Of a DNA stretch of 64,000 nucleotides, positions 9,795 through 63,960 are shown in pieces. Under the pieces are notes generated by a model. That model had not been told where the DNA came from and did no database searches. It saw only the letters and a program-made list of their open reading frames with translations. Numbering within the stretch: the first letter of the stretch is position 1; every line of letters starts with the position of its first letter. This DNA comes from an uncultured Dehalococcoidia bacterium (GTDB lineage Bacteria; Chloroflexota; Dehalococcoidia; Lucifugimonadales; UBA1127), in assembly GCA_951812285.1 (NCBI GenBank), contig OX638292.1, positions 971,008 through 1,035,007 on the forward strand. Reading direction: 5' to 3'. Both the position numbers and the translations under genes were made by a program.

Positions 9795-9839
9795 CACGGA
9801 CGCAATTCAACACATCCATATAAGGGAAGGAGAAGGAAC

Positions 9840-18821: not shown

Positions 18822-19589
18822 TCATTCACAGGCGGGCAGTCCGAGTTCGTCTAAGTCGTTGTCGGCCACGCCTTGTAATACAACGGGTATGCATCCGCTC
18901 AACTGGTTGCGGGAGAGGCTCAGGACTTGGAGGTTGGAGAGGTTTCCCAGCTCCGGCGGTATCTCCCCGCTCAAGTCGTTGCTGTGGAGGAACAGCTGTT
19001 CAAGGTTGGAGAAGTTTCCCAGCTCCGGCGGTATCTCCCCGCTCAAGTCGTTGCTGTTGAGGAACAGCTGTTCAAGGTTGGAGAGGTCTCCCAGCCACGG
19101 CGGTATCTCCCCGGTCAACTGGTTGAGGCCGAGCCCCAGCGATTCAAGGTTGGAGAGGCTGCCCAGCTCCGGCGGTATCTCACCCGTCAGCCGGTTCCAG
19201 CGGAGGTCCAGCGTTATGACCCGACCGTTGGCGTCCGTCTCGACGCCATACCACTCATCCAGCGGCGCGCCGCTCAGCCAGTATGTGTTGTCGTCCCAGT
19301 TTGGGCCGTCCGTGGCGTTGTAGAGGGCGACCAGGGCTTCTCTGTCCCCTGACGGAGACCCGCTGACGGCTACGGAAACAGGCGTAGGTGTGTCCGCAGA
19401 CGCGGGCGTATTGCCGGGCGTCATGCCGGGGGCTTGGGTGGACTGCGTTGGCCCCTCGGACGGCGAGTCACCGCCGCAGGCCGCCAGGGACGCTGCGGCA
19501 AGCGCCGTCAGCAGGAGGGCCAGGGCTGCTTGCCGGGCTTGCCTCCCCAGGCCGTGTGGATTCACGTGGACGGACCAGCCTTTGATCAT
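18822..19589 (-). CDS. Secreted lipoprotein with plant-type (LxxLxLxxNxLSGxIPxxLG) leucine-rich repeats
   Basis: Signal peptide with lipobox ALLLTALAAASLAAC. At least five 24-residue repeats of the form LTGEIPPELGSLSNLESLGLGLNQ. Confidence 0.8.
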   Translation of the reverse strand: MIKGWSVHVNPHGLGRQARQAALALLLTALAAASLAACGGDSPSEGPTQSTQAPGMTPGNTPASADTPTPVSVAVSGSPSGDREALVALYNATDGPNWDDNTYWLSGAPLDEWYGVETDANGRVITLDLRWNRLTGEIPPELGSLSNLESLGLGLNQLTGEIPPWLGDLSNLEQLFLNSNDLSGEIPPELGNFSNLEQLFLHSNDLSGEIPPELGNLSNLQVLSLSRNQLSGCIPVVLQGVADNDLDELGLPACE

Positions 19590-21907: not shown

Positions 21908-21951
21908 TTTCGGCTCCTATACAAGATGATCACCTCGAAATTAGCCCCCTC

Positions 21952-22143
21952 TCACAGATGCCGCTGGTTGGGCCGGACGCCCTCGCTCCTCCACCGCCGT
22001 ATCGTTAGGGGGTAGGTCTCGATGCGGCGAGCGATCGCCGCCCACGTCAGCCCCGACTCCTCCCTGAACCGCTTCAATCACCCCGGAAAGTCGTCGGGGA
22101 AAACGTAGACCCTTCTGCTGTGCTGTATGCGCTGTCTCGGCAT
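21952..22143 (-). pseudogene. Divergent, interrupted fourth copy of the HTH gene
   Basis: Reads MPRQRIQHSRRVYVFPDDFPG*LKRFREESGLTWAAIARRIETYPLTIRRW..., with an in-frame stop and a truncated C-terminus. Confidence 0.5.
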
Positions 22144-22260
22144 CGGGCCGGTCCTTCACGAATCGGCTCTTCCTCCTGCCGACCCAGCGGACATCACCCG
22201 TTGACGGTGTCCGTGAACCCCGATGGACACCCACCGGCCACCCCCCCCCGCTCCGGCGCC

Positions 22261-22385
22261 AGTCCGGGGCTGCGCCGAATGACATGGCGGTGAAGGGGCC
22301 GCGGCCGTAGACGTTGATGGCCGAGACGCTGATCACGTAGCGGGTCCCGCTGGTCAGGCCGGAGAGCGTCAGGCTCCTCGGATTC
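22261..22385 (-). pseudogene. FN3 3'-end remnant joined directly to leader copy 1 (internal deletion of a whole FN3 gene)
   Basis: ...LSGLTSGTRYVISVSAINVYGRGPFTAMSFGAAPD with the stop lost. The junction lies at the shared heptamer tcggatt (22378-22384). Confidence 0.5.
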
Positions 22386-22535
22386 AGGCGGTGAAAATCG
22401 GGGGGGGGGGGGTAGAACTAACGCGCTATTATCGGCGCGCCGGGCGCGGGATATCGCGCCGGCCGATACCTGTTCAGGTCTTCTCTGTTCGACAGTCACG
22501 AGACACCTCCTATTTTGTGGGTATACTCCCCCACG
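22386..22535 (-). promoter_or_regulatory. Leader copy 1 (truncated promoter, SD plus GTG uORF start at 22499, poly-C13)
   Basis: Homologous to the leaders at 25452-25700 and 29401-29615. Confidence 0.5.
22400..22412. repeat. Homopolymer G13 (C13 on the gene strand)
   Basis: Counted directly. Confidence 0.9.
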
Positions 22536-22538
22536 ACT

Positions 22539-25451
22539 TTAGGGGTCGTTGGGGACATGGGCCGACCACGTGGTGGCCCAGGGGCCGCCGCCGTTGGCGT
22601 TGTGGGCCTGCACCTCCACGTCGTACTCCGTTCCCGCGGTGAGGCCCGTGATCGTGTACGACCGCGGGTTCTCGCAGAAGGGCACCCCGCACATGCGAAG
22701 GGTCGGGCGCGGGTAGAGCACGTCGCTCGTGGTCCAGCTTCCGTCTCCGTCTCGTTCCCGGTGGCGCACCTGGTAGGCGTGCGCGAAGGAGCGGTCGCTC
22801 TGTTCCGGCGGCTCCCACTCGACGACCAGCGACTCGCTGCCCGGCGTGACCTCGATCCCGGTCGGATAGTCCGGAGGCTTGTTCCAGAGGATGTGTGTTT
22901 GGACGGTCAGGATCTCGGAGGTGAACCCCAGGGTGCGCGTCACCACAGGGTCCATCCCGTCGGTGACTCGCCCCCTGACCCGGACCTGCCAGGTGTTTGG
23001 AGTTGCCGTACCTGGGTCCAGCCCGGTGATCGTGTGGGTGCGTTTGGTTGTGTCCGTGACGACGTTGTTGGTCCAGGCCCCGCTCGTGCCCTGGCGGTGC
23101 TGCACGACGTAGGCGTCGAGGTTGTCGGGGTCCGACTCGTAGCCTTCCCAGACGACGACCAGTTTGCCGAGCCCGCCCGACGCGTACACGAGGAAGGCCG
23201 ACGGGCCGCCCACCTCGCCCTCATATAAGGAGGAGGTTGTCGACACGCCACCAACTGTTTGGGTGACGCGGGCCGTCAGCGAGCCGGTTGCATCCAGGCT
23301 GACAATAGTTCGACCCGGACAGTTGATGGTGTCACCGCCGTTCACAGCGCATATGGCGCTTCCAAAGCCCTTGTTGCTATCGGAATAAAAGAATGTCCTG
23401 CCAATGCCAGCGTTGTGGGTGGGGGTGTTGCTATCGAGCCAGACCTGCGTCGGCTCCGACCACACGGTGACGGGCGCCGCGGGGGTCGACCAGGCATCCT
23501 GGGTAGTATTCAGGACGCTGTTGGTGAACCGGGCGGCGATGCGGACGGTATAGACATTCCCGTCGGTCAACCCGGTGATGCGGTGCCTGCGCGCAACGAA
23601 GGGATCCGATGGCTCGGTGTCGCCGGGGTCGGCAAGCACGACCGTTTCTGCGTCGGCTGTGCCGGTCTGCCACTCCACGACGTAGGCGGTCAGCGTGGAT
23701 CCGTCGGGGGAGGAGGCGGGCGAGCCCCAGGTGAGGGAGATGCCGCTGTTGTTGTCGGCCTCCACGCGAAGGTTACGGGGGCTGTCCGTATCCGCGGGCC
23801 TTGTGGGGTCGGCCAGGACGGTGGCGGTGAGCGCATCGCTGTCGTGGGTATGCGTGCAATCGGCGGCGGCGCCGATGCAGCGGGCGTCGGCGGCAACCAC
23901 TCTGAAGTCGTATGCGGTTCCTGCATCGAGCCCGCCGAAGGCGAAGGGCTGCGTCCACCATATCGCGTTGGGAAGCTTGTACGACGAAGCCCAGTAGTCG
24001 TGGCCCGCTTCCTTCCACTGCAGCCACGCCCCGCCGGACACGCAGCCCGTTCCCGGTCCGCCCCTGTTGGTCCAGGACCCGTTGACCCCGCCGGCTATGT
24101 CCGCTGTCACCGTCAGGCTGATGTCGCAGACCGCCGGCACATTCCCCTGGCCGGTCGGGCCTTCCTGGGGAGCGCGTGGGGTGGACTTCCTGGACGGGTA
24201 GATGGTCTGCACGCGGTACTCGTACATGCCGGGCGTCAGATCGTTGAGGACGTGACGGGTGGCGAGCGGCCCCACGGTCTCGGACTTCCAGTCGCCGCCG
24301 GAGGCGCTCCTGGCCTCGACCGAGTAACCGGACGGCTCGCATGCGTTTTCGTCGCTGGGCGCATCCCAGAACGCCACCAACGCGCGTGGAACGCCGAGGG
24401 CCGACACGTCCTCGGGCGGCGCCTGCTCACAGGCCGGTTCCCAGCCGATGAGGAAGTTCCCGTTAAGGGAGACGGAGAGGCCGTCGGGGTCGGTCGCCGT
24501 CAGCGTGACCGTGATCGGCAGCGGGTTGGGCAGCGGGGGCTGGATGGTGTCCCAGTCATCGTCGGCATCGGCCTGGAAGAACACTCGCAGTACGTTCTCA
24601 AGGGGGTAGCCGCTTTGCGCCGCCTGAGCATCGCTCCCTCCATCATTATGGAATTGCAAGACGTCCACCAGCCCGCTGTCGCCGCCGGAGATGGCCACGG
24701 CGTAGGTCAGATTATCGCCGTCGGGGTCGGAGAAGATGCCGTAGAAAGGCTTGCTGACCAGGGTGCCACGGGGTGCGTTGTTGTTCCCGGTGAACCAGGA
24801 GTAATAGTCGGCCTGTGTATTCAACACCGGCGCCCGGTTGGGTACCGGCGTGGGCGTGGGCGCAGGCGTAGGCTCCGGCTCAGAGGCCGATGCCTCCATC
24901 GCAGTCAACTCGGCGGCCACCGGAACCCACCGCTGCCAGCCGTTGTCGGCATAGCCCTGGGCCTCGGCGGCGGTCATGTCGTCGAGGGCGCCAAAGGACT
25001 TCAGCACGCGCATCCAGCGCAGCACGTGGTCATGGCCGTTATCCGTCTCCCGCGAGTAGCCCCGAACGTCGGCGACCACCTGCGAGTCCGGCTCGTTGCT
25101 CCCCGGCGCGTTCTCCAGCTTCGTCAGCTCCTCCACTACCGGGTTCCAGCGTTTTGCCCAATACTTGTCGGCGAGGTCCTGGGCCTCGGCAGCGGTCATA
25201 CCGTCCAGGGCGTCGAGGGTATGCAGAACTCGGAACCAGCGATGCACGTGGTCGTAGCCGTTGTCCGTCTCCGCAGCGTAAGTCCAGACGTCGGCCACCA
25301 CCTGCGCGTCGGGCTCGTAGTCGCCCTGGGCGCCTGCGGGACTGGTCCCCGACCAGGACACCGCCAGGACGGCAAGGAGGGCGAGGGACAGCGCCGCGAG
25401 ACGGCCCATCGGCCACGGGTGGAAGAATGGGGCGAGCGTGGGGTGCCTCAT
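22539..25451 (-). CDS. Large secreted multi-FN3 protein (970 aa) with a tandem N-terminal ~70-aa domain and a cadherin-like segment
   Basis: Signal peptide MRHPTLAP...LAVSWSGTSPAGAQ. Two copies of EPD.QVVADV..Y..ETDNG.DHV.RW.RVL......D.MTAAEAQ. Multiple FN3 signatures (SGISLTWGSP..., YVVEWQ..., GTEYDVEVQAHNANG). ATG 25451 was chosen for GGAGGTG-N5-ATG. Confidence 0.8.
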   Translation of the reverse strand: MRHPTLAPFFHPWPMGRLAALSLALLAVLAVSWSGTSPAGAQGDYEPDAQVVADVWTYAAETDNGYDHVHRWFRVLHTLDALDGMTAAEAQDLADKYWAKRWNPVVEELTKLENAPGSNEPDSQVVADVRGYSRETDNGHDHVLRWMRVLKSFGALDDMTAAEAQGYADNGWQRWVPVAAELTAMEASASEPEPTPAPTPTPVPNRAPVLNTQADYYSWFTGNNNAPRGTLVSKPFYGIFSDPDGDNLTYAVAISGGDSGLVDVLQFHNDGGSDAQAAQSGYPLENVLRVFFQADADDDWDTIQPPLPNPLPITVTLTATDPDGLSVSLNGNFLIGWEPACEQAPPEDVSALGVPRALVAFWDAPSDENACEPSGYSVEARSASGGDWKSETVGPLATRHVLNDLTPGMYEYRVQTIYPSRKSTPRAPQEGPTGQGNVPAVCDISLTVTADIAGGVNGSWTNRGGPGTGCVSGGAWLQWKEAGHDYWASSYKLPNAIWWTQPFAFGGLDAGTAYDFRVVAADARCIGAAADCTHTHDSDALTATVLADPTRPADTDSPRNLRVEADNNSGISLTWGSPASSPDGSTLTAYVVEWQTGTADAETVVLADPGDTEPSDPFVARRHRITGLTDGNVYTVRIAARFTNSVLNTTQDAWSTPAAPVTVWSEPTQVWLDSNTPTHNAGIGRTFFYSDSNKGFGSAICAVNGGDTINCPGRTIVSLDATGSLTARVTQTVGGVSTTSSLYEGEVGGPSAFLVYASGGLGKLVVVWEGYESDPDNLDAYVVQHRQGTSGAWTNNVVTDTTKRTHTITGLDPGTATPNTWQVRVRGRVTDGMDPVVTRTLGFTSEILTVQTHILWNKPPDYPTGIEVTPGSESLVVEWEPPEQSDRSFAHAYQVRHRERDGDGSWTTSDVLYPRPTLRMCGVPFCENPRSYTITGLTAGTEYDVEVQAHNANGGGPWATTWSAHVPNDP

Positions 25452-25648
25452 GCCGTCACCTCCCAAAGGAGGTGGGCGTAAGGCTCAGGAATATCGGATT
25501 CAGGCGGTGAAAATCGGGGGGGGGGGGGGGGTAGAACTAACGCGCTACCAAGGGCGCCACGAGCGGGGGTGGGATCGAACGCGGGCGTCACGCCGACCGT
25601 CGCCGGTATCGCTGTTGCCAATTCAGGTTGTCTCTGTACGAGAGCCAA
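25448..25648 (-). CDS. Candidate leader peptide (uORF), 66 codons, poly-proline; stop overlaps the main ATG
   Basis: GGGGAGGG-N6-TTG (25648). Sequence ...ALVLPPPPPRFSPPESDIPEPYAHLLWEVTA*. TGA at 25450-25448 overlaps ATG at 25451-25449. The SD and start are conserved in all three leader copies. Confidence 0.4.
   Translation of the reverse strand: MALVQRQPELATAIPATVGVTPAFDPTPARGALGSALVLPPPPPRFSPPESDIPEPYAHLLWEVTA
25457..25474 (-). promoter_or_regulatory. SD-sequestering hairpin CACCTCC-TTTG-GGAGGTG
   Basis: Perfect 7-bp stem whose 3' arm is the main gene's SD. The same stem with a different loop occurs at 29406-29423. Confidence 0.55.
25516..25531. repeat. Homopolymer G16 (C16 on the gene strand)
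   Basis: Counted directly. Confidence 0.9.
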
Positions 25649-25685
25649 ATTGAACCCTCCCCTTTTCCGGGCATATTCCCCCACG

Positions 25686-25772
25686 ATTTTACCACCGTAT
25701 GTGTGACGGAGCCGTGACGATTTGAGGCAATGTACGTGACACCTTGTGACGTTTCGCAGAATGCGGCATAAT
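25686..25772. promoter_or_regulatory. Divergent promoter region, copy 2
   Basis: Minus strand: extended -10 TGgTAAAAT (25694-25686). Plus strand: TTGTGA (25744-25749)-N17-CATAAT (25767-25772). GTGAC(G) boxes at 25703, 25714, 25736 and 25746. Confidence 0.45.
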
Positions 25773-25819
25773 TGCCCTTATAGACGCCCATTGACTCCCT
25801 ATCGGCAGGCCATCGAGGT

Positions 25820-25958
25820 GACGCCCAAGCATCCCGCCTATGAGCGACCCGCTCCACCGGCCCGGCGTCGCAACCGGCGTCAGCAAGGGACGACACAGGA
25901 CGCAACGGCGGAGACGCAGGAAGCCGAGACGCAACAGCAGACGCTGAGGCTGTTCTAG
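25820..25958 (+). pseudogene. Duplicated 3' end of gene 16631-17137, fused to the SD of the histidine-kinase-type promoter
   Basis: 25820-26055 aligns with 16999-17225 (coding tail, stem-loop and TTTTGCGTTT motif). The track ORF 25746-25958 is a junction artefact. Confidence 0.6.
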
Positions 25959-26071
25959 GGCGGGCCGACGGAGCGCAACGCACGGGGGAGGGATGCCGCA
26001 TGGCGGTGTCCCTCCCCCGCCGACTGCAGGTGCGGCCTTTTGCGTTTCAGACCCTTGCTGTGCGTCCCGTC

Positions 26072-26317
26072 TCAGCCGGTGAAGATGTGGCCGAGGCCCA
26101 TACTCTCGGCCAGTTCAAGCAGCGCCCTGCGGTGCTGGTAGTTGGGCCGCGTCCTGCCCTCGGACCATCGCCATACGGTGTGCCGATAGGTCCCGAGCCG
26201 GCGAGCGATCTCCGACCACGAATAGCCCGACTCCCTCTGGAATCGCTTGAGACGCTCCGGGAAGTCCACCGGGATTGCGTAAACCTCTCTGCTGTAATGG
26301 ATGCGCTGTCTCGGCAT
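26072..26317 (-). CDS. 81-aa HTH protein, copy C
   Basis: Differs from copy A at two N-terminal positions only (HHPRETY versus HYSREVY). Confidence 0.7.
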   Translation of the reverse strand: MPRQRIHYSREVYAIPVDFPERLKRFQRESGYSWSEIARRLGTYRHTVWRWSEGRTRPNYQHRRALLELAESMGLGHIFTG

Positions 26318-26607
26318 CGAGCCGGTCCTTCACGAATCGGCGCTCCCTCCTGGAGGCATCCAAGCCGGGCAGCATTCCTGCGAAAGGCGGAGCGGGGAGC
26401 CCCCGCGTTTCTGCATGTATGCCGCTCTTTTTGCGTTTCAGGCCCCTTCCTGTCCATCTATGGCCCATCTGGGTACCCCGGAAGGCCGACGACGACGGCT
26501 AGCCTACGCAACGGGAGTCACCTGTTGACGGTGTGCGTGATCCCGATGGACGCCCACCGGCCAACCACCCGCGCCGGGGTTGTTGGCCGGCGCGGGAACT
26601 CACCGTG

Positions 26608-29400
26608 CTATTTGGGGGTGACGGTGCCCGCCGAGACCCACCCGCTGCCGCCGTTCACGTTGCGCGCCTGGATGGCCACCGTGTATGCCGTCCCGGATGT
26701 AAGGCCGAAGAGCGTTTGGGTGCTCCCAACCGAGCGTATTATCAACGGTGTGTGGAAAACCACGTTCCGGTAGATTGGATCGCTGCCCGAAGCGGTTAGG
26801 CGAACGCGGTAGTAGTGGATCCCGGAAGGTCCCGGCTCCGGATGCGTCCAGCTGACATCGATATTCCCTTCGTCACTCGTCGCCGCGGCGGATACGCCGG
26901 TCGGCGTTCCGGGCAGTCCCGTCTGCGTATCGCCGACGGTGACTGTGTACTCTTGCCAACGGGCGCCCAGGAACCGCCCCTCGTCCGGCTCATTGCCGTT
27001 GGCGCACTGCTGCGCCTCCGCACCGGCGGTGTTGGAGCAGGGGAAGACCGTGATCTTGTACTCGCCGCTGTCCAGGCCGGTAATCTCGTGATGGTAGCGG
27101 TCGTGGACTGCTTCCTTGTCGTCGTCCTTGTCGACCGGGACCCAGACTACCGTGCCGCCCACCTTCTGGTACCTGATCACGTAGGAATTGACTTGCTTGC
27201 CCGTACGCGCGGGGTATGAATGACGCCAGCTTATACCCAGAACACCGTCGCCGCCCGACGCCCACGACATCTGGATGAATCCCGCATCAACGGAGAATTC
27301 GCCAATTTTGGGCGTATTTACAGTACTGAGTGAGCCATTATTCGAAGCGATGTTGTCATCCGTTCGCCCAATCTCAGCGTACGCATGAACGTTGTATACG
27401 CCGCCTTCAGCGATGTCCAAACTCACGAGAGTGCCTGGCGGGCAGGCGATTTGGGAACCGGAACCGGGGTTGATGAAGCATTGCGCCGAGACAGGAGAGA
27501 CACTCGTTCGTACGTTCATGAACATACGACCGATTTGGAAGTGACGATTCGGCGTGTTGTCCCAGAACCACACCATGAACGGCTCTCCGTCGGAGGGCGC
27601 CTTCACGGGCGTGGAATAGCGGGTCACCGTCGCTCCACCGCTCGTCCCCTTTGTGCCAACCTCGATCCAATAGGACTTTTCGGAATCAAGCAAATCAGTC
27701 AGCTTGTATGCCCCGATATCTTTCGTATCGTCGCACACCATCGTCACTGCGTTGAAGTTCCGGCAAAAATCCTTGGCCACATCGACCGTGGAGAACTCGT
27801 TAGAGCCGGCCTCACGATAGCGCACAACGTAGCCCGTGACGTTGGTCACACCGGGCGCAGGACCGCTCCACTGGACCAAAGACTCCCTGGCGAGATTGGA
27901 TATGACCTCCACGTCGGCAGTGCCCGCTACGGGAGTGATGGTGACCTTAGCGCTGGTCTGCGTCGTGCCGTTGCTTGCGATGGTTTCGATCCGAAAGTCA
28001 TACGCAACCAGGTCCATATCGCCCCAGATGAACTTCCTGTCCTCGACTTTGTACTCGTCCGAAGAGACCCACTCCGTGTCGGCACTCTTCTTCCACTCGA
28101 CGCGGATGCCGCCGGAATCGCAGGTGTCGCTGGTGGTCCATGACCCGCTGACCTCGTGGGCTTCTTCAGTAGTGAGGGTCAGGGTGATGGTGCAATGGGA
28201 AGAGGGCATGGTTATGGGCTCAGGCTCATAGGTGGCCGAGACGGTCACCTGGAAGTCGGGCAGGCCGAGGTCGAATACCGTGACGGACGTATCATCCGGG
28301 CCCGCCGTCGTATGCAACGTGAGCCCTTCTTCCCAATCGATCCGGATGATGAACCCGGTGAGGTCGCAGGACTCGGGGGCTTCGGGCGTCGCCCAGGAGA
28401 CGACGATCTCCTGCTCCGCGCGTATGGCCGTCACGCTACCCGGCTCGCCGCCGGCGCAGTCGGGCGCCGGTTCGGACCAGGTAACCGTGATGGGGGCCGA
28501 CGTTGCCGACTCCCCGGAATCGTAGCTGACCGTCAAGCGGATGCGCCAAGTCTCCGCCTTGCTGTTGCTGGATCGGAAGGTGGAAAAGCTCCCCAAGGAA
28601 TACCACTCCCCACCACCAAAGTCGACCTCCCAGCTGTACGAAGGCGTCTCTCCCTCGGGTGCGTTGGTGATGGTCGCCGTCACCGTCGTAGCTTCATCCA
28701 CCTCGGGATTGGCCGGGCTGGCAGTGATGGACAGTCCGACGGACTCGGCCGGGACCGGCTCCGGCGTAGGCGTGGGTGTAGGTTCGGGAGTTGGTTCAGG
28801 AGTGGGCTCTGGGGTGGGCGCAGGCGTAGGCTCCGGCTCAGAGGCCGATGCCTCCATCGCAGTCAACTCAGCGACCACAGGGTCCCAGCGAGCTGCGGTG
28901 TACAGGTCGGCATAACCCTGGGCCTCGGCGGCGGTCATGCCGTCGAGGGCGTCGAAGGTGTGCAGCACCCGGAACCAGCGATGCACGTGGTCGTATCCGT
29001 TTTGGGTCTCCGCCGCGTAGCCCCGGATGTCGGCGATGACCTGTGAATCCGGTTCGCCGCTATTGAGAGCCGCTACCACAGGCTCCCATCGCGTCCAGCC
29101 CCTGTCGGCATAGCCCTGGGCCTCGGCGGCGGTCATGTCGTCAAGGGCGTCGAAGGTGTGCAGCACCCGGAACCAGCGATGCACGTGGTCGGGGCCGTTT
29201 GCCGTCTCCTTCGCGTAAGTCCAGACGTCGGCAACCACCTGCGGGTCGGGTTCGTAGTCATCCTGCGCGCCAGCGGGAGAGGTCCCGGACCAAGACACGG
29301 CCAGCATGGCGAGGAGGACGAGGGACAGCGCCGCAAGGCGGCCCAGGGGCCACCGGCGCAGGGACGGGGCGGGAGCGAGAGTGGAAGTTGGGGGCCTCAT
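26608..29400 (-). CDS. Large secreted multi-FN3 protein (930 aa), paralog of 22539-25451
   Basis: Same signal peptide and tandem N-terminal domain, TPEP linker, several FN3 modules (TGYVVRYRE..., YYRVRLTASG..., GTAYTVAIQARNVNG). ATG 29400 has GGAGGTG-N5. Confidence 0.8.
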   Translation of the reverse strand: MRPPTSTLAPAPSLRRWPLGRLAALSLVLLAMLAVSWSGTSPAGAQDDYEPDPQVVADVWTYAKETANGPDHVHRWFRVLHTFDALDDMTAAEAQGYADRGWTRWEPVVAALNSGEPDSQVIADIRGYAAETQNGYDHVHRWFRVLHTFDALDGMTAAEAQGYADLYTAARWDPVVAELTAMEASASEPEPTPAPTPEPTPEPTPEPTPTPTPEPVPAESVGLSITASPANPEVDEATTVTATITNAPEGETPSYSWEVDFGGGEWYSLGSFSTFRSSNSKAETWRIRLTVSYDSGESATSAPITVTWSEPAPDCAGGEPGSVTAIRAEQEIVVSWATPEAPESCDLTGFIIRIDWEEGLTLHTTAGPDDTSVTVFDLGLPDFQVTVSATYEPEPITMPSSHCTITLTLTTEEAHEVSGSWTTSDTCDSGGIRVEWKKSADTEWVSSDEYKVEDRKFIWGDMDLVAYDFRIETIASNGTTQTSAKVTITPVAGTADVEVISNLARESLVQWSGPAPGVTNVTGYVVRYREAGSNEFSTVDVAKDFCRNFNAVTMVCDDTKDIGAYKLTDLLDSEKSYWIEVGTKGTSGGATVTRYSTPVKAPSDGEPFMVWFWDNTPNRHFQIGRMFMNVRTSVSPVSAQCFINPGSGSQIACPPGTLVSLDIAEGGVYNVHAYAEIGRTDDNIASNNGSLSTVNTPKIGEFSVDAGFIQMSWASGGDGVLGISWRHSYPARTGKQVNSYVIRYQKVGGTVVWVPVDKDDDKEAVHDRYHHEITGLDSGEYKITVFPCSNTAGAEAQQCANGNEPDEGRFLGARWQEYTVTVGDTQTGLPGTPTGVSAAATSDEGNIDVSWTHPEPGPSGIHYYRVRLTASGSDPIYRNVVFHTPLIIRSVGSTQTLFGLTSGTAYTVAIQARNVNGGSGWVSAGTVTPK

Positions 29401-29404
29401 GCCG

Positions 29405-29569
29405 TCACCTCCCGCAGGAGGTGGGCGCAAGGCTCAGGAATATCGGATTTAGGCGGAGAAAATCGGGGGGGGGGGGGGGGGGTAGAACTAACGCGCTATT
29501 ATCGGCGCAACGGGCGCGGGATATCGCGGCGGCCGATACCTGTTCAGGTTGTCTCTGTACGATAGCCAA
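29405..29569 (-). CDS. Candidate leader peptide (uORF), 54 codons, poly-proline; stops 4 nt before the main ATG
   Basis: GGGAGGTG-N5-TTG (29569). Sequence ...ALVLPPPPPPDFLRLNPIFLSLAPTSCGR*. TGA at 29407-29405 lies inside the main SD region. Confidence 0.4.
   Translation of the reverse strand: MAIVQRQPEQVSAAAISRARCADNSALVLPPPPPPDFLRLNPIFLSLAPTSCGR
29465..29482. repeat. Homopolymer G18 (C18 on the gene strand)
   Basis: Counted directly. Confidence 0.9.
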
Positions 29570-29606: not shown

Positions 29607-29693
29607 ATTTTACCACCGCAGCCGTGACGCAGCCGTGACGATTTGAGCCAATTTGCGTGACACCTTGTGACGTTTCGCAGAATGCGGCATAAT
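29607..29693. promoter_or_regulatory. Divergent promoter region, copy 3, between the FN3 gene and the hybrid kinase gene
   Basis: Minus strand: TGgTAAAAT (29615-29607). Plus strand: TTGTGA (29665-29670)-N17-CATAAT (29688-29693). GTGAC(G) boxes at 29624, 29635, 29657 and 29667 (11- and 10-bp phasing). Confidence 0.5.
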
Positions 29694-29746: not shown

Positions 29747-32122
29747 TTGGACCGGCACGACGAGCTGCACCGACGGATACAGGAGCTGGAAGAGCGCCTC
29801 TCGCGCCTGAGCGGGGCCAGCCTCCGCATCAACGAGAGCCTCGACTTCGACACGGTGTTGCAGGAGGTGGTGGACGGGGCCAGGGGGCTGACGGCCTCAC
29901 GCTACGGGGCAATAACCGTTCTCGGCGAAGCCGGGCAGACACCCGACTTCATCGTCTCCGGTCTCACCGGGGAGGAGCACCAGGGTCTGTGGGACATGCC
30001 GGAGGGACGGGGATTCTTCGAGTATCTCAGCGGGCTGGAGGAGCCCCTGCGGGTCTCGGACGTCGACGGCCACCTGCGGGCGTTGGACATGCCCGGGTTC
30101 CTGCCCTCGGTGCCGGTGAAGTCCCTGCTGGTGGCGCCCATCCGCCACCAGGGGGTCGGGGTCGGGACGATCTATCTGGCCCATGACACGGGCGACCGGG
30201 AGTTCACGCGGGAGGACGAGGAGACGCTGGTGCTCTTCGCGTCCCAGGCGGCGATGGCCATCGCCAACGCCCGCAGGCACCGAGAAGAACGCCGGGCCAG
30301 GGCCGACCTGGAGACCCTGATAGACACCTCCCCCGTGGGCGTCGCGGTCTTCGACGCCGGAACGGGAGCGCCCGTGTCCTTCAACCGGGAGGCCCGGAGG
30401 ATCGTGGACAGCCTGCGCGATCCCGGCCAGTCGCCGGAGGAGCTTCTGGAAACAATGATCTGCAGGCGCGCCGACGGGCGGGAGGTCTCCCTGCGGGAGT
30501 TCCCGATGGCCGAGCTCCTGAGCAAGGGGGAAACGGTGCGTGCCGAGGAGATCGTCATGCGCGTTCCCGATGGACGTTCCGTCACCGTCCTGCTCAACGC
30601 CACGCCCACCCAATCCGAAGAGGGCGCGGTCGAGTCGGTGGTCGTCACCCTACAGGACATGGCCGATGTGGAGGAGCTGGAGCGGCTGCGGGCCGAGTTC
30701 CTGGGGATGGTGAGCCACGAGCTGAGGACTCCCCTGACCTCCATTACGGGCTCCGCATCCACGGTGCTGGACTCAGCGAAGGATCTGGACCCCGCCGTGG
30801 TGCGCCAGTTCTTCCGCATCATCAAGGATCAAGCCGAGCACATGAACGATCTGGTCTCCGACCTGCTGGACGTGGCCCGCATCGAGACGGGCACCCTGCC
30901 GGTCGGCCCCGAACCCGCCGAGGTGGCCGTGCTGGTGGACCGGGCGAGGAATGGGTTCACCAACGCGGGGGGCAAGAACATCCTCGCCATCGACGTTGAG
31001 CCGGACCTTCCCCTGGTGATGGCGGACCGGCGGCGCATCGTGCAGGTGCTCGGCAACCTGCTGTCCAACGCGGCCCGGCACTCCCCGGAATCGTCCGTCA
31101 TCAGGTTGAGAGCGGTGCGGGACGGCGTACACGTGGCGGTCTCGGTGGCCGACGAGGGGCGGGGCATCCCCTCCGAGAGCCTGCCTCACCTGTTCCGCAA
31201 GTTCTCCGGGGCACAGTCCGAGGAGCAGGGAGGGGACACCGGGCTGGGCCTCGCCATCTGCAAGGGCATAGTGGAGGCGCACGGGGGACGCATCTGGGCC
31301 GAGAGCGAGGGGCCGGGAACGGGGGCGTGCTTCACCTTCACGCTGCCATCGGTCGAGGAAACAGCGGCGACCACCATTTCGTCCATATCGACGCGGCGCG
31401 AGCAGAAGGCGGAGGAGGAGCGGCTGCGCATCCTCGCGGTGGACGACGACCCCAACGATCTCCGCTACGTCCGCGACACCCTCGCCAAGTCGGGCTACGA
31501 CCCGGTGGTGACCGGGGACCCGCAGGAGGCGCTCCGCCTCGTGGCGGACGAGAGGCCGGAGCTTGTGCTGCTCGACCTGATGCTTCCGGGAACGGATGGC
31601 ATCGAGCTGATGAAGGACATCCTCGATGTGGCGGACGTGCCGGTCATCTTCCTGTCCGCCTATGGGCGGGAGGAGCTCGTCGCCAGGGCCTTCGACACGG
31701 GGGCCGCCGATTACGTGGTCAAGCCCTTCTCGCCGACGGAGCTTGCGGCAAGGATCAGGGCGTCCCTGCGAAAGCGGGCGGTTGCGGAGCCGTCGGAGCC
31801 GTACGTGCTGGGCGATCTGACCATCGACTACGCCGGGCGAAGGGTGACCCTGGCCGGCCAGCCTGTGCACCTCACCCCGACCGAGTACCGGGTGCTGGCC
31901 GAAATCTCGGCCAACGCAGGGCGGCTGGTGACCTACGAGCGCCTGCTGGACCGGGTATGGGAGAAAAGAGAGAGCGACGGCGACGTGCGGCCCATTCGCA
32001 CCATCGTCCGCAGACTCCGCCGCAAGCTCGGCGACGACGCCGACAACCCCACCTACATCTTCACCGAGCCCCGCGTCGGCTACCGGATGTCGGAGGGGGA
32101 GGGGCCATCCGCGACCCGCTGA
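29747..32122 (+). CDS. Hybrid sensor: GAF/PAS histidine kinase fused to a receiver and an OmpR-type winged-helix DNA-binding domain
   Basis: H-box VSHELRTPLTSI, N-box GNLLSNAARH, G-boxes DEGRGI and GLGLAICKGIVEAHGG. Receiver ILAVDDDPNDL...LLDLMLPGTDG...KPF. Winged helix LTPTEYRVL...RRLRRKLG...YIFTEPRVGYRM. TTG start with GAGGTGA RBS. Confidence 0.85.
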   Translation: MDRHDELHRRIQELEERLSRLSGASLRINESLDFDTVLQEVVDGARGLTASRYGAITVLGEAGQTPDFIVSGLTGEEHQGLWDMPEGRGFFEYLSGLEEPLRVSDVDGHLRALDMPGFLPSVPVKSLLVAPIRHQGVGVGTIYLAHDTGDREFTREDEETLVLFASQAAMAIANARRHREERRARADLETLIDTSPVGVAVFDAGTGAPVSFNREARRIVDSLRDPGQSPEELLETMICRRADGREVSLREFPMAELLSKGETVRAEEIVMRVPDGRSVTVLLNATPTQSEEGAVESVVVTLQDMADVEELERLRAEFLGMVSHELRTPLTSITGSASTVLDSAKDLDPAVVRQFFRIIKDQAEHMNDLVSDLLDVARIETGTLPVGPEPAEVAVLVDRARNGFTNAGGKNILAIDVEPDLPLVMADRRRIVQVLGNLLSNAARHSPESSVIRLRAVRDGVHVAVSVADEGRGIPSESLPHLFRKFSGAQSEEQGGDTGLGLAICKGIVEAHGGRIWAESEGPGTGACFTFTLPSVEETAATTISSISTRREQKAEEERLRILAVDDDPNDLRYVRDTLAKSGYDPVVTGDPQEALRLVADERPELVLLDLMLPGTDGIELMKDILDVADVPVIFLSAYGREELVARAFDTGAADYVVKPFSPTELAARIRASLRKRAVAEPSEPYVLGDLTIDYAGRRVTLAGQPVHLTPTEYRVLAEISANAGRLVTYERLLDRVWEKRESDGDVRPIRTIVRRLRRKLGDDADNPTYIFTEPRVGYRMSEGEGPSATR

Positions 32123-63883: not shown

Positions 63884-63960
<77 letters not shown>

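Follow-up and report, generated by a model that had tools for sequence, protein, structure and literature searches.

Long cytosine homopolymers lie within short upstream open reading frames (uORFs) in the leaders of two genes, here called B and C, which encode large secreted proteins of an uncultured Dehalococcoidia bacterium (Chloroflexota). The genes are located on a stretch of 64,000 nucleotides (contig OX638292.1 of assembly GCA_951812285.1, positions 971,008 to 1,035,007 of the forward strand), which is referred to as the window and to which all coordinates apply unless another locus is named. We consider slipped-strand phase variation of these adhesin-like proteins, acting through translational coupling and not through the promoter, to be the probable function of the tracts, and put its probability at about two in three.

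C tracts in the leaders of genes for large secreted proteins

Three long tracts are present in the window, two of which precede intact genes:

22400-22412, plus strand: run of 13 G, a C tract on the gene (minus) strand, in a remnant leader (locus A); found by sequence reading, homopolymer scan and alignment with the related locus L001
25516-25531, minus strand: C16 tract in the leader of gene B; found by sequence reading and homopolymer scan
29465-29482, minus strand: C18 tract in the leader of gene C; found by sequence reading and homopolymer scan
22539-25451, minus strand: gene B, 970 amino acids, with a signal-peptide-like N-terminus and C-terminal fibronectin type III (FN3) domains
26608-29400, minus strand: gene C, 930 amino acids, with a signal-peptide-like N-terminus and FN3 domains at its end

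A preliminary description of the window had listed G runs of 13, 16 and 18 nt (G13, G16 and G18) in a shared context. Both positions and context were borne out by reading the sequence, by the scan and by a pattern match in the window: in 3 of 3 cases the gene strand reads GCGCGTTAGTTCTA-Cn-GATTTTC, and the 14-mer is exact. The tract lengths come from one assembly, and homopolymers of this kind may be at least one base off, which would alter the deduced frame. G or C runs of at least 9 nt gave 24 overlapping matches in the window, against 2.7 ± 2.1 expected from 100 dinucleotide-preserving shuffles of it, none of which reached 24 (0/100). The tract region has a G+C content of 60-70%, and the sole further G or C run of at least 8 nt in the 64 kb is a C9 at 22241-22249, in the same locus.

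The mature parts of the B and C proteins are 27% identical. Their leaders are far more alike, with 92% identity from tract to ATG and 86% identity over 115 nt from the -10-like box (see below) upstream. A nucleotide identity computed for the two coding regions with a global aligner was discarded as inflated by cheap gaps. The closest relative is contig DAOUHP010000160 of a Dehalococcoidia metagenome-assembled genome (MAG), which shows 93% protein identity and is called L001 (loci of other genomes carry L numbers throughout). Alignment with L001 showed that the leader at locus A is joined to the last ~35 codons of an FN3 paralog. In L001 the paralog is intact (887 amino acids, L001 7138-9798), and in the window the deletion junction carries a microhomology:

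22378-22384, minus strand: AATCCGA, 7 nt, identified by alignment with L001

The three paralogous leaders described earlier can therefore be kept for the two that lead intact genes (B and C), while the copy at 22400 is the orphan of a deleted gene. The C9 run of this locus (plus strand; G9 on the gene strand) has flanks that differ from those of the three tracts. It lies 7 nt past the former stop of the deleted paralog (TAG in L001, TGG in the window), and its L001 counterpart (9809-9823) is 15 nt long, so that this run also varies in length.

Tract length sets the end of the upstream reading frame

The anatomy of the leaders in the window can be given with high confidence. Those of B and C each consist, in this order, of a TGGTAAAAT box, a strong Shine-Dalgarno sequence (SD), a TTG start, a frame open through the tract, the main SD GGAGGTG and the main ATG, which lies 64 nt past the tract:

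25686-25694, minus strand: TGGTAAAAT, an extended -10-like box and candidate promoter, 163 nt upstream of tract B
29607-29615, minus strand: TGGTAAAAT box, 133 nt upstream of tract C
25448-25648, minus strand: uORF B, 66 codons, with SD GGGGAGGG, a spacing of 6 nt and TTG at 25648
25450-25448, minus strand: TGA stop of uORF B, overlapping the main ATG (25451-25449)
29405-29569, minus strand: uORF C, 54 codons, with SD GGGAGGTG, a spacing of 5 nt and TTG at 29569
29407-29405, minus strand: TGA stop of uORF C, within the main SD, 7 nt before the ATG
22194-22499, minus strand: uORF A, with SD AGGAGGTG, a spacing of 4 nt and GTG at 22499
25500-25502, minus strand: early stop TGA in the CCG-ATT-TTC frame, 13 nt past tract B, used at n mod 3 = 2
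29449-29451, minus strand: early stop TAA in the CCG-ATT-TTC frame, past tract C

The TGGTAAAAT box was also found 162-164 nt upstream of the tract at 6 other MAG loci (null 0.7% per 330 nt). Its position places the tract within a transcribed leader, as far as the motif of this candidate promoter indicates. GTCAC direct repeats with a spacing of 10-11 bp are present directly upstream of the box (25695-25760 and 29616-29680). uORF A continues out of frame over the 3' FN3 fragment of the deleted paralog.

The dependence of the uORF end on tract length was simulated by varying n from -3 to +3 around the observed lengths; the values of n mod 3 given here are valid for leaders B and C. When n mod 3 = 1, the uORF is terminated by a TGA that overlaps the main ATG (ATGA). 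When n mod 3 = 0, the TGA of AGGTGA, 7 nt ahead of the ATG, is its stop, and when n mod 3 = 2 a TGA (B) or TAA (C) that begins 13 nt past the tract and ends at nt 16. The simulation thereby reproduced the frame table of the preliminary description. As assembled, B (n = 16) is in the ATGA-overlap state and C (n = 18) in the SD-stop state. Every uORF frame across the tract encodes poly-proline. The window does not show the intragenic form of a frameshift switch, since the early stop 13 nt past the tract closes the one frame that is in phase with the main ATG. Insertions and deletions within the uORFs are multiples of three in the aligned sequences (30 nt in B versus A and C, 3 nt in L063 versus A). 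Translation of the uORFs is deduced from their SD, open frame, in-frame insertions and deletions and stop placement, and not from purifying selection.

The start regions of both main genes are predicted to fold into stable hairpins:

25445-25484, minus strand: predicted hairpin of gene B, in which the main SD (GGAGGTG) pairs with CACCTCC and the AUG is paired; -28 kcal/mol, z = -3.5 against shuffles
29394-29433, minus strand: equivalent predicted hairpin of gene C, sequestering SD and AUG; -27.4 kcal/mol, z = -3.1

Start-region hairpins were also predicted in two unrelated leader families of quite different sequence (L021 and L008). Upstream of the tract, the leader folded into no more structure than shuffled sequence, and a structured RNA in this part was dropped as a candidate for that reason. 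Small GC hairpins end 4-7 nt before TTCTA, the 5' flank of the tract, at many sites. A conserved hairpin at this position was convincing by eye but statistically not significant (mean z = -0.26 against shuffled sequence, 5 of 42 sites below -1.5). None of the leaders matched Rfam 15 at the gathering score, and the only match in the window was a tRNA gene at its far end (63887-63959, minus strand).

In full-leader folds, part of the C run pairs with the SD of the uORF, and G15 or longer can in principle form a quadruplex. Both would be in line with a purely structural effect of the tract, be it through a template-strand G-quadruplex, an i-motif or pairing of the C run with the uORF SD. Considered together with an assembly artefact, to which some obviously spurious database matches (L102, L150) might point, such an effect appears the least probable explanation of all. 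Structural models do not predict the frame-specific stop codons described below, the upstream leader shows no excess of structure, and tracts at orthologous positions in independent Illumina and long-read assemblies speak against an artefact, the individual lengths staying uncertain.

We propose that transcription starts about 10 nt past the TGGTAAAAT box, which would place the tract ~120-150 nt into a 5' leader of ~200-235 nt. Directed by its strong SD and TTG or GTG start, the uORF would be translated and its C tract read as poly-proline, while the predicted hairpin would lock the main SD and AUG. The length of the tract would set the frame. At n≡1 (mod 3) the ribosome would cross the hairpin and terminate at the TGA overlapping the main ATG, and at n≡0 it would terminate in the main SD, 7 nt before the ATG; in both states it would melt the hairpin, so that re-initiation could occur and the gene would be expressed. 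At n≡2 translation would stop 13 nt past the tract, ~50 nt before the ATG, the hairpin would remain shut and the gene would be silent or weakly expressed. Replication slippage by ±1 C would shift a cell between the states, as suggested by the length polymorphism between genomes. An effect of tract length on the expression of the main gene is suggested by the frame-specific stops, the predicted hairpins and homologs with a fixed frame.

Frame-specific stop codons are conserved in related leaders

To collect related leaders, species-representative genomes were searched with a DNA pattern that required the TTCTA and GATTTTC flanks. Of the 57 stretches obtained, some looked like chance matches of low GC; the others yielded 32 distinct sites of the Dehalococcoidia type and 10 more on a single Nitrospirales contig, with n between 10 and 23. 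Since the pattern required the flanks, flank conservation in this first set is partly circular. Hence a second search was performed that required only C12 followed by GATTTTC, which returned at least 118 stretches; 79 sites among the matches listed were scored.

An SD-led start with a frame open into the tract was found at 29 of the 42 sites, compared to 16% at random positions of the same loci. At 25 of 32 sites a stop codon is present no more than 16 nt past the tract in the CCG-ATT-TTC frame, whereas the other two frames have such a stop at 1 and 0 sites; the background is 17% per 6-codon window. Among the matches listed from the second search the figures were 53 of 79 sites in this frame and 2 and 1 elsewhere. 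The stop is TGA, TAA or TAG, which argues that the selected feature is termination itself and not a DNA motif. For the GAT-TTT frame, 19 of the 32 sites have the end of the uORF between -9 and +5 nt relative to the main start, and for the CGA-TTT frame 13 do. Furthermore, the uORF frame runs in phase into the main ORF at 9 of the 32 sites, and this fusion gives the classical intragenic form of the switch in those relatives. The frames currently occupied are evenly spread (11/8/10), as expected without one fixed state and unlike a fixed regulatory leader peptide.

The bases of the tract themselves also seem to be under selection. CCC makes up 40% of the proline codons in the large genes of the window. 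In the three leaders 4-6 pure CCC codons follow one another, and the lengths of the tracts do not keep to multiples of three. The low share of CCC together with the non-triplet lengths points to selection on the homopolymer and not on proline. The flank TTCTA is read as V-L, S-T or F-Y depending on the locus.

The flanks invite a different explanation, in which TTCTA and GATTTT(C) are promoter elements and the tract is their spacer, as in the switches of Bordetella fim or Neisseria opc and porA; the absolute value of n would then count, and not n mod 3. The flanks adjoining the tract are indeed conserved as nucleotides regardless of reading frame, GATTTT has the A2 and T6 of a -10 hexamer, tract lengths among the matches listed centre on 14-17, and in some families the main start lies just 23-35 nt past the tract. 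Nevertheless, a motif search detected no sigma-70-like hexamer pair at the tract. The extended -10-like box, itself conserved, is located 133-164 nt further upstream, an SD-led ORF spans the tract, and n ranges from 7 to 26, far past a workable spacer. Moreover, a spacer would not account for SD-led uORFs, stops of three kinds in one frame, stops overlapping the ATG or homologs that have no tract and a fixed frame. Judged by these motifs and frames, a promoter-spacer switch is very improbable.

Several points weigh against phase variation by translational coupling. It does not account for the conservation of the flanks (TTCTA or GTTCA, and GATTTTC), which spans several phyla and is at the nucleotide level. 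The sites are non-independent, many of them being orthologs or paralogs, and many comparison genomes are long-read MAGs, in which homopolymer lengths and frames may be one base off. The uORF peptides are poorly conserved: B and its L001 ortholog differ, counted by eye, by ~8 non-synonymous and 2 synonymous changes. The hairpins are predictions, and the consensus fold of 11 leaders of family 1 was poorly registered with almost no covariation; because this fold is uninformative, we rely on single-sequence folds in three unrelated families. The putative transcription start was set from a motif alone. Switching within a population, its reversibility and an effect on expression are hypothetical.

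Tract length varies between close relatives

The leader of the second gene has n = 16 in L001, 12 in L063 and 11 in L188; over the 150 nt that precede the tract, L001 and L063 show 99% identity. In L008 and L048 the 40-nt flanks are identical, whereas n is 23 and 12, respectively. Among orthologs of leader B, n takes the values 16, 14, 8 and 7, and at about twenty orthologous loci of the GTTCA type among the matches listed n ranges from 12 to 25. Near-identical flanks with differing n show that the repeat length varies faster than the flanks diverge. In addition, three independent short-read assemblies of the same gene (L188, L189, L190) all begin within the tract upstream of it, and for two of these assemblies the other end falls within the following tract. 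These breaks fit length heterogeneity and equally fit poor coverage of homopolymers.

Some homologs provide natural controls. An interrupted tract, C6-T-C8, is identical in three assemblies (homologs L182-L184), and the homolog L187 has kept the uORF and has no tract. In the interrupted L183 and the tract-less L187 alike, the uORF is fixed in its ATGA-overlap frame. From these sequences, coupling looks like the underlying design and the ATGA frame like the working state, which a pure tract would make switchable.

That L187 has the uORF-to-ATGA coupling without a tract means that coupling predates the tract. It could accordingly be argued that uORF and hairpin form an ordinary, constitutive coupling or attenuation leader, into which the C run was inserted as a neutral or mildly deleterious, slippage-prone sequence with no adaptive switching; the short or interrupted tracts that occur (C7, C8, C6-T-C8) agree with this. 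A neutral tract, on the other hand, would decay through interruptions, whereas pure tracts of 10-26 C are found at about 100 or more sites in several phyla, together with a dedicated early stop in one frame. Multi-copy families within one genome (at least 10 copies in a Nitrospirales MAG, at least 6 in a Latescibacterota MAG) and the exclusive tie to secreted repeat proteins fit contingency loci. We thus find a constitutive leader without switching quite improbable.

A further explanation places the variation at the level of RNA or translation. Slippage of the polymerase, or stalling and frameshifting of the ribosome at poly-proline CCC-C codons, would sample all three frames from one template, and output would be tuned by nucleotide pools, elongation factor P (EF-P) or the state of tRNA-Pro, DNA length differences being a by-product. 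Hairpin-stimulated transcriptional slippage takes place on a T5C5 motif in an insertion sequence (IS) element of Roseiflexus, a member of the Chloroflexota, and +1 frameshifting at CCC-C codons is known. The tracts are longer than the RNA:DNA hybrid, poly-proline is encoded in every frame, and frame-specific stops would serve such a device equally well. Of the alternatives named in the preliminary description, transcriptional slippage is thus one that would also use the stops, which a G-quadruplex leaves unexplained. Against such a device, DNA lengths differ between near-identical genomes, and the tracts are places where short-read assemblies break. Stalling by a peptide would not call for uninterrupted CCC, given the 40% share of CCC, and the hairpins 5' of the tract that might stimulate slippage were not significant (mean z = -0.26). 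The fixed frame of the interrupted and tract-less homologs suggests that the frame at the DNA level matters. As the sole basis of the variation a device of this kind is unlikely; slippage, stalling or frameshifting could act on top of DNA slippage, and so might G-quadruplex effects.

Taken together, the comparative data support the core of the preliminary description, in which a hypermutable tract within a uORF sets its frame and gates the start of a surface protein gene: uORFs led by an SD prevail (29/42), the start hairpins are predicted, the frame-specific stops are conserved, lengths vary and some homologs have a fixed frame.

Distribution of the module

The module begins with a start codon and a few further codons; TTCTA or GTTCA, the Cn tract and GATTTTC follow, and one frame then has a stop. 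It was found at about 100 or more sites in Dehalococcoidia and other uncultured phyla, nearly always in front of signal-peptide proteins. A long ORF with a signal-peptide-like N-terminus lies within 23-400 nt downstream at 59 of the 79 sites among the matches listed, as judged by a simple heuristic. The downstream proteins carry FN3, SWM repeat, cadherin-like, Calx-beta, leucine-rich repeat (LRR) and ricin lectin domains. At the GC-rich sites among the matches listed, the 5' flank is TTCTA at 21 and GTTCA at 21, together about two thirds.

Loci found through protein homology alone also share the flanks and carry the tract at the same place. L001 has C14 and C16, L002 (43% protein identity) has TTCTA-C21-AATTTTC, and L063 and L064 have C7 and C8 with degraded flanks, a C12 preceding the second gene of L063. 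A tract is hence present in homologous loci of relatives (L001, L002, L063, L064); the preliminary description had proposed to look for it in orthologous loci. An exact search of species-representative genomes for the window's own context gave no match, which shows that this set lacks the genome of the window, and exact-protein look-ups of the window proteins found no other assembly of the same strain. A single contig scan of the JGI metagenome collection yielded low-GC, chance-like matches only, which serves as a background estimate and not as absence elsewhere.

Contig CBDDOW010000006 of a Nitrospirales MAG has at least 10 copies of TTCTA-Cn-GAATTTTC, with n = 10-23 (L006, L019, L030, L032, L033, L038, L053, L055, L061 and L062). 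They are located at the 5' end of large ORFs of the Calx-beta, ricin-lectin or autotransporter-like type. At 10 of 10 loci exactly one frame exceeds 600 nt, and the loci inspected (e.g. L053 and L062) have no in-frame Met before the signal peptide. By these sequence criteria, the apparent uORF is the true N-terminus here and the switch is of the classical intragenic kind. Of the 8 copies whose frame could be scored, 7 are off-frame.

A multi-copy family also occurs in two genomes of Latescibacterota, one of which has at least 6 copies. The copies are L079, L093, L103, L112, L118 and L129 on OZ220478.1 and L116 and L123 on OZ241889.1. Their motif is AAAAAACAATAAGTTA-Cn-GATTTTCTTGGG with n = 12-21, and its upstream part resembles the Nitrospirales family. 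Single sites were found among the matches listed in MAGs of Caldilineaceae, Gammaproteobacteria (Pseudohongiella) and Spirochaetia. L091, labelled Candidatus Aldehydirespirator (Acidimicrobiia), has a leader near-identical to that of several Dehalococcoidia MAGs, which reflects either a binning error or horizontal transfer.

The occurrence in Dehalococcoidia, Caldilineaceae, Nitrospirales, Latescibacterota, Gammaproteobacteria and Spirochaetia MAGs raises the question of whether the TTC(T)A-Cn-GA(A)TTTTC module and its leader ORF form a portable cassette. It would be exchanged across phyla sharing a habitat, and its conserved flanks, serving for recognition or pausing in either DNA or RNA, would actively promote or bound slippage. 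We regard this as rather unlikely; if true, the module would be a dedicated, sequence-specified device for the diversification of surface proteins and not a case of passive homopolymer instability.

Comparison to known systems

Phase variation through uORF coupling shares much of its logic with the simple sequence repeat (SSR) contingency loci with poly-G or poly-C tracts of Neisseria, Haemophilus, Campylobacter and Helicobacter. In both, homopolymer length sets the frame with three frame states, the cargo is of the surface or adhesin type, multi-copy families are mostly off-frame and lengths are polymorphic between close strains; in the relatives of the Nitrospirales MAG the tract even sits within the beginning of the main ORF, as is classical. 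In contrast, the tracts of the window lie in a separate uORF, the main gene retains a separate SD and ATG, and termination-reinitiation together with opening of the start-region hairpin is the proposed route of the effect. Moreover, the tracts are longer (13-26), and the hosts are uncultured high-GC Chloroflexota and not pathogens.

Bordetella pertussis is a high-GC organism, and the tract of the Bordetella fim promoter comprises ~13-15 C with conserved flanks. Phase variation through homopolymers is documented for B. pertussis (PMC1891110), as is a single C deletion in the fim3 promoter (PMC10172299). The preliminary description had known of no account of such a switch, either for high-GC genomes or for a uORF-based mechanism. 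The first part goes too far in view of these reports; for the uORF-coupled wiring no description was found. Our literature searches yielded nothing relevant on homopolymers in coupling uORFs, and likewise nothing on phase variation in Chloroflexota or sponge symbionts. The B. pertussis switches resemble the present case in that a C run of a high-GC organism is involved and a single-C change alters the expression of a surface structure there. Their tract is in the promoter and acts on transcription, whereas in the window it lies 133-163 nt past the candidate -10 box within a uORF and stops in defined frames are conserved.

In hmw1A of Haemophilus influenzae, a heptamer repeat is located in the transcribed 5' untranslated region, a hairpin is processed by RNase III, and expression scales with repeat number (PMC12721329). 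A hypermutable repeat in a transcribed adhesin leader with post-transcriptional action is common to both; the homopolymer of the window differs in that it would act via the reading frame of a uORF, with a period of 3. Leader-ORF control as in ermC, cat and secM-secA likewise has an SD-led upstream ORF, an SD/AUG held in a hairpin and ATGA stop overlap. There, the known input is a drug, a metabolite or the secretion status acting on a fixed sequence, while the proposed input in the window is a heritable change of ±1 nt in the uORF. The logic is thus like that of the contingency loci of host-adapted pathogens, and the wiring is closest to translational coupling with a sequestered start.

Most of what is understood about homopolymer phase variation comes from a few pathogens that can be cultured. 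The same logic would here apply to uncultured high-GC Chloroflexota, in which a coupling uORF would control large secreted proteins whose adhesion domains are eukaryote-like (FN3, LRR, cadherin-like, Calx-beta, lectin). An association with hosts is probable for these bacteria; the names of several homologs and samples hint at sponge metagenomes as a putative habitat. If so, symbionts would vary their surface stochastically, like pathogens do. Gene callers and MAG pipelines will wrongly judge whether such genes are on or off, and tract sites fragment short-read metagenome assemblies. The short motif offers a handle for finding candidate switchable surface proteins across metagenomes, and the tract-less and interrupted homologs are ready-made experimental controls.

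Neighbouring genes

The gene at 29747-32122 (plus strand), divergent from gene C, encodes a hybrid GAF-PAS-HisKA-HATPase-receiver protein with an OmpR-type DNA-binding domain. A similar hybrid sensor-type neighbour adjoins the homologous genes in L183 and L187, and the protein is a candidate for a dedicated regulator of these surface-protein genes. Downstream of the remnant at locus A, one frame at 21941-22200 (minus strand) resembles a helix-turn-helix segment (LKRFREESGLTWAAIARRIETYPLTIRRWR) and could be a transposase-type fragment. The ORF at 21941-22336 had no Pfam match, the helix-turn-helix-like frame not having been scanned separately. A leucine-rich-repeat protein of 255 amino acids is encoded near the locus at 18822-19589 (minus strand).

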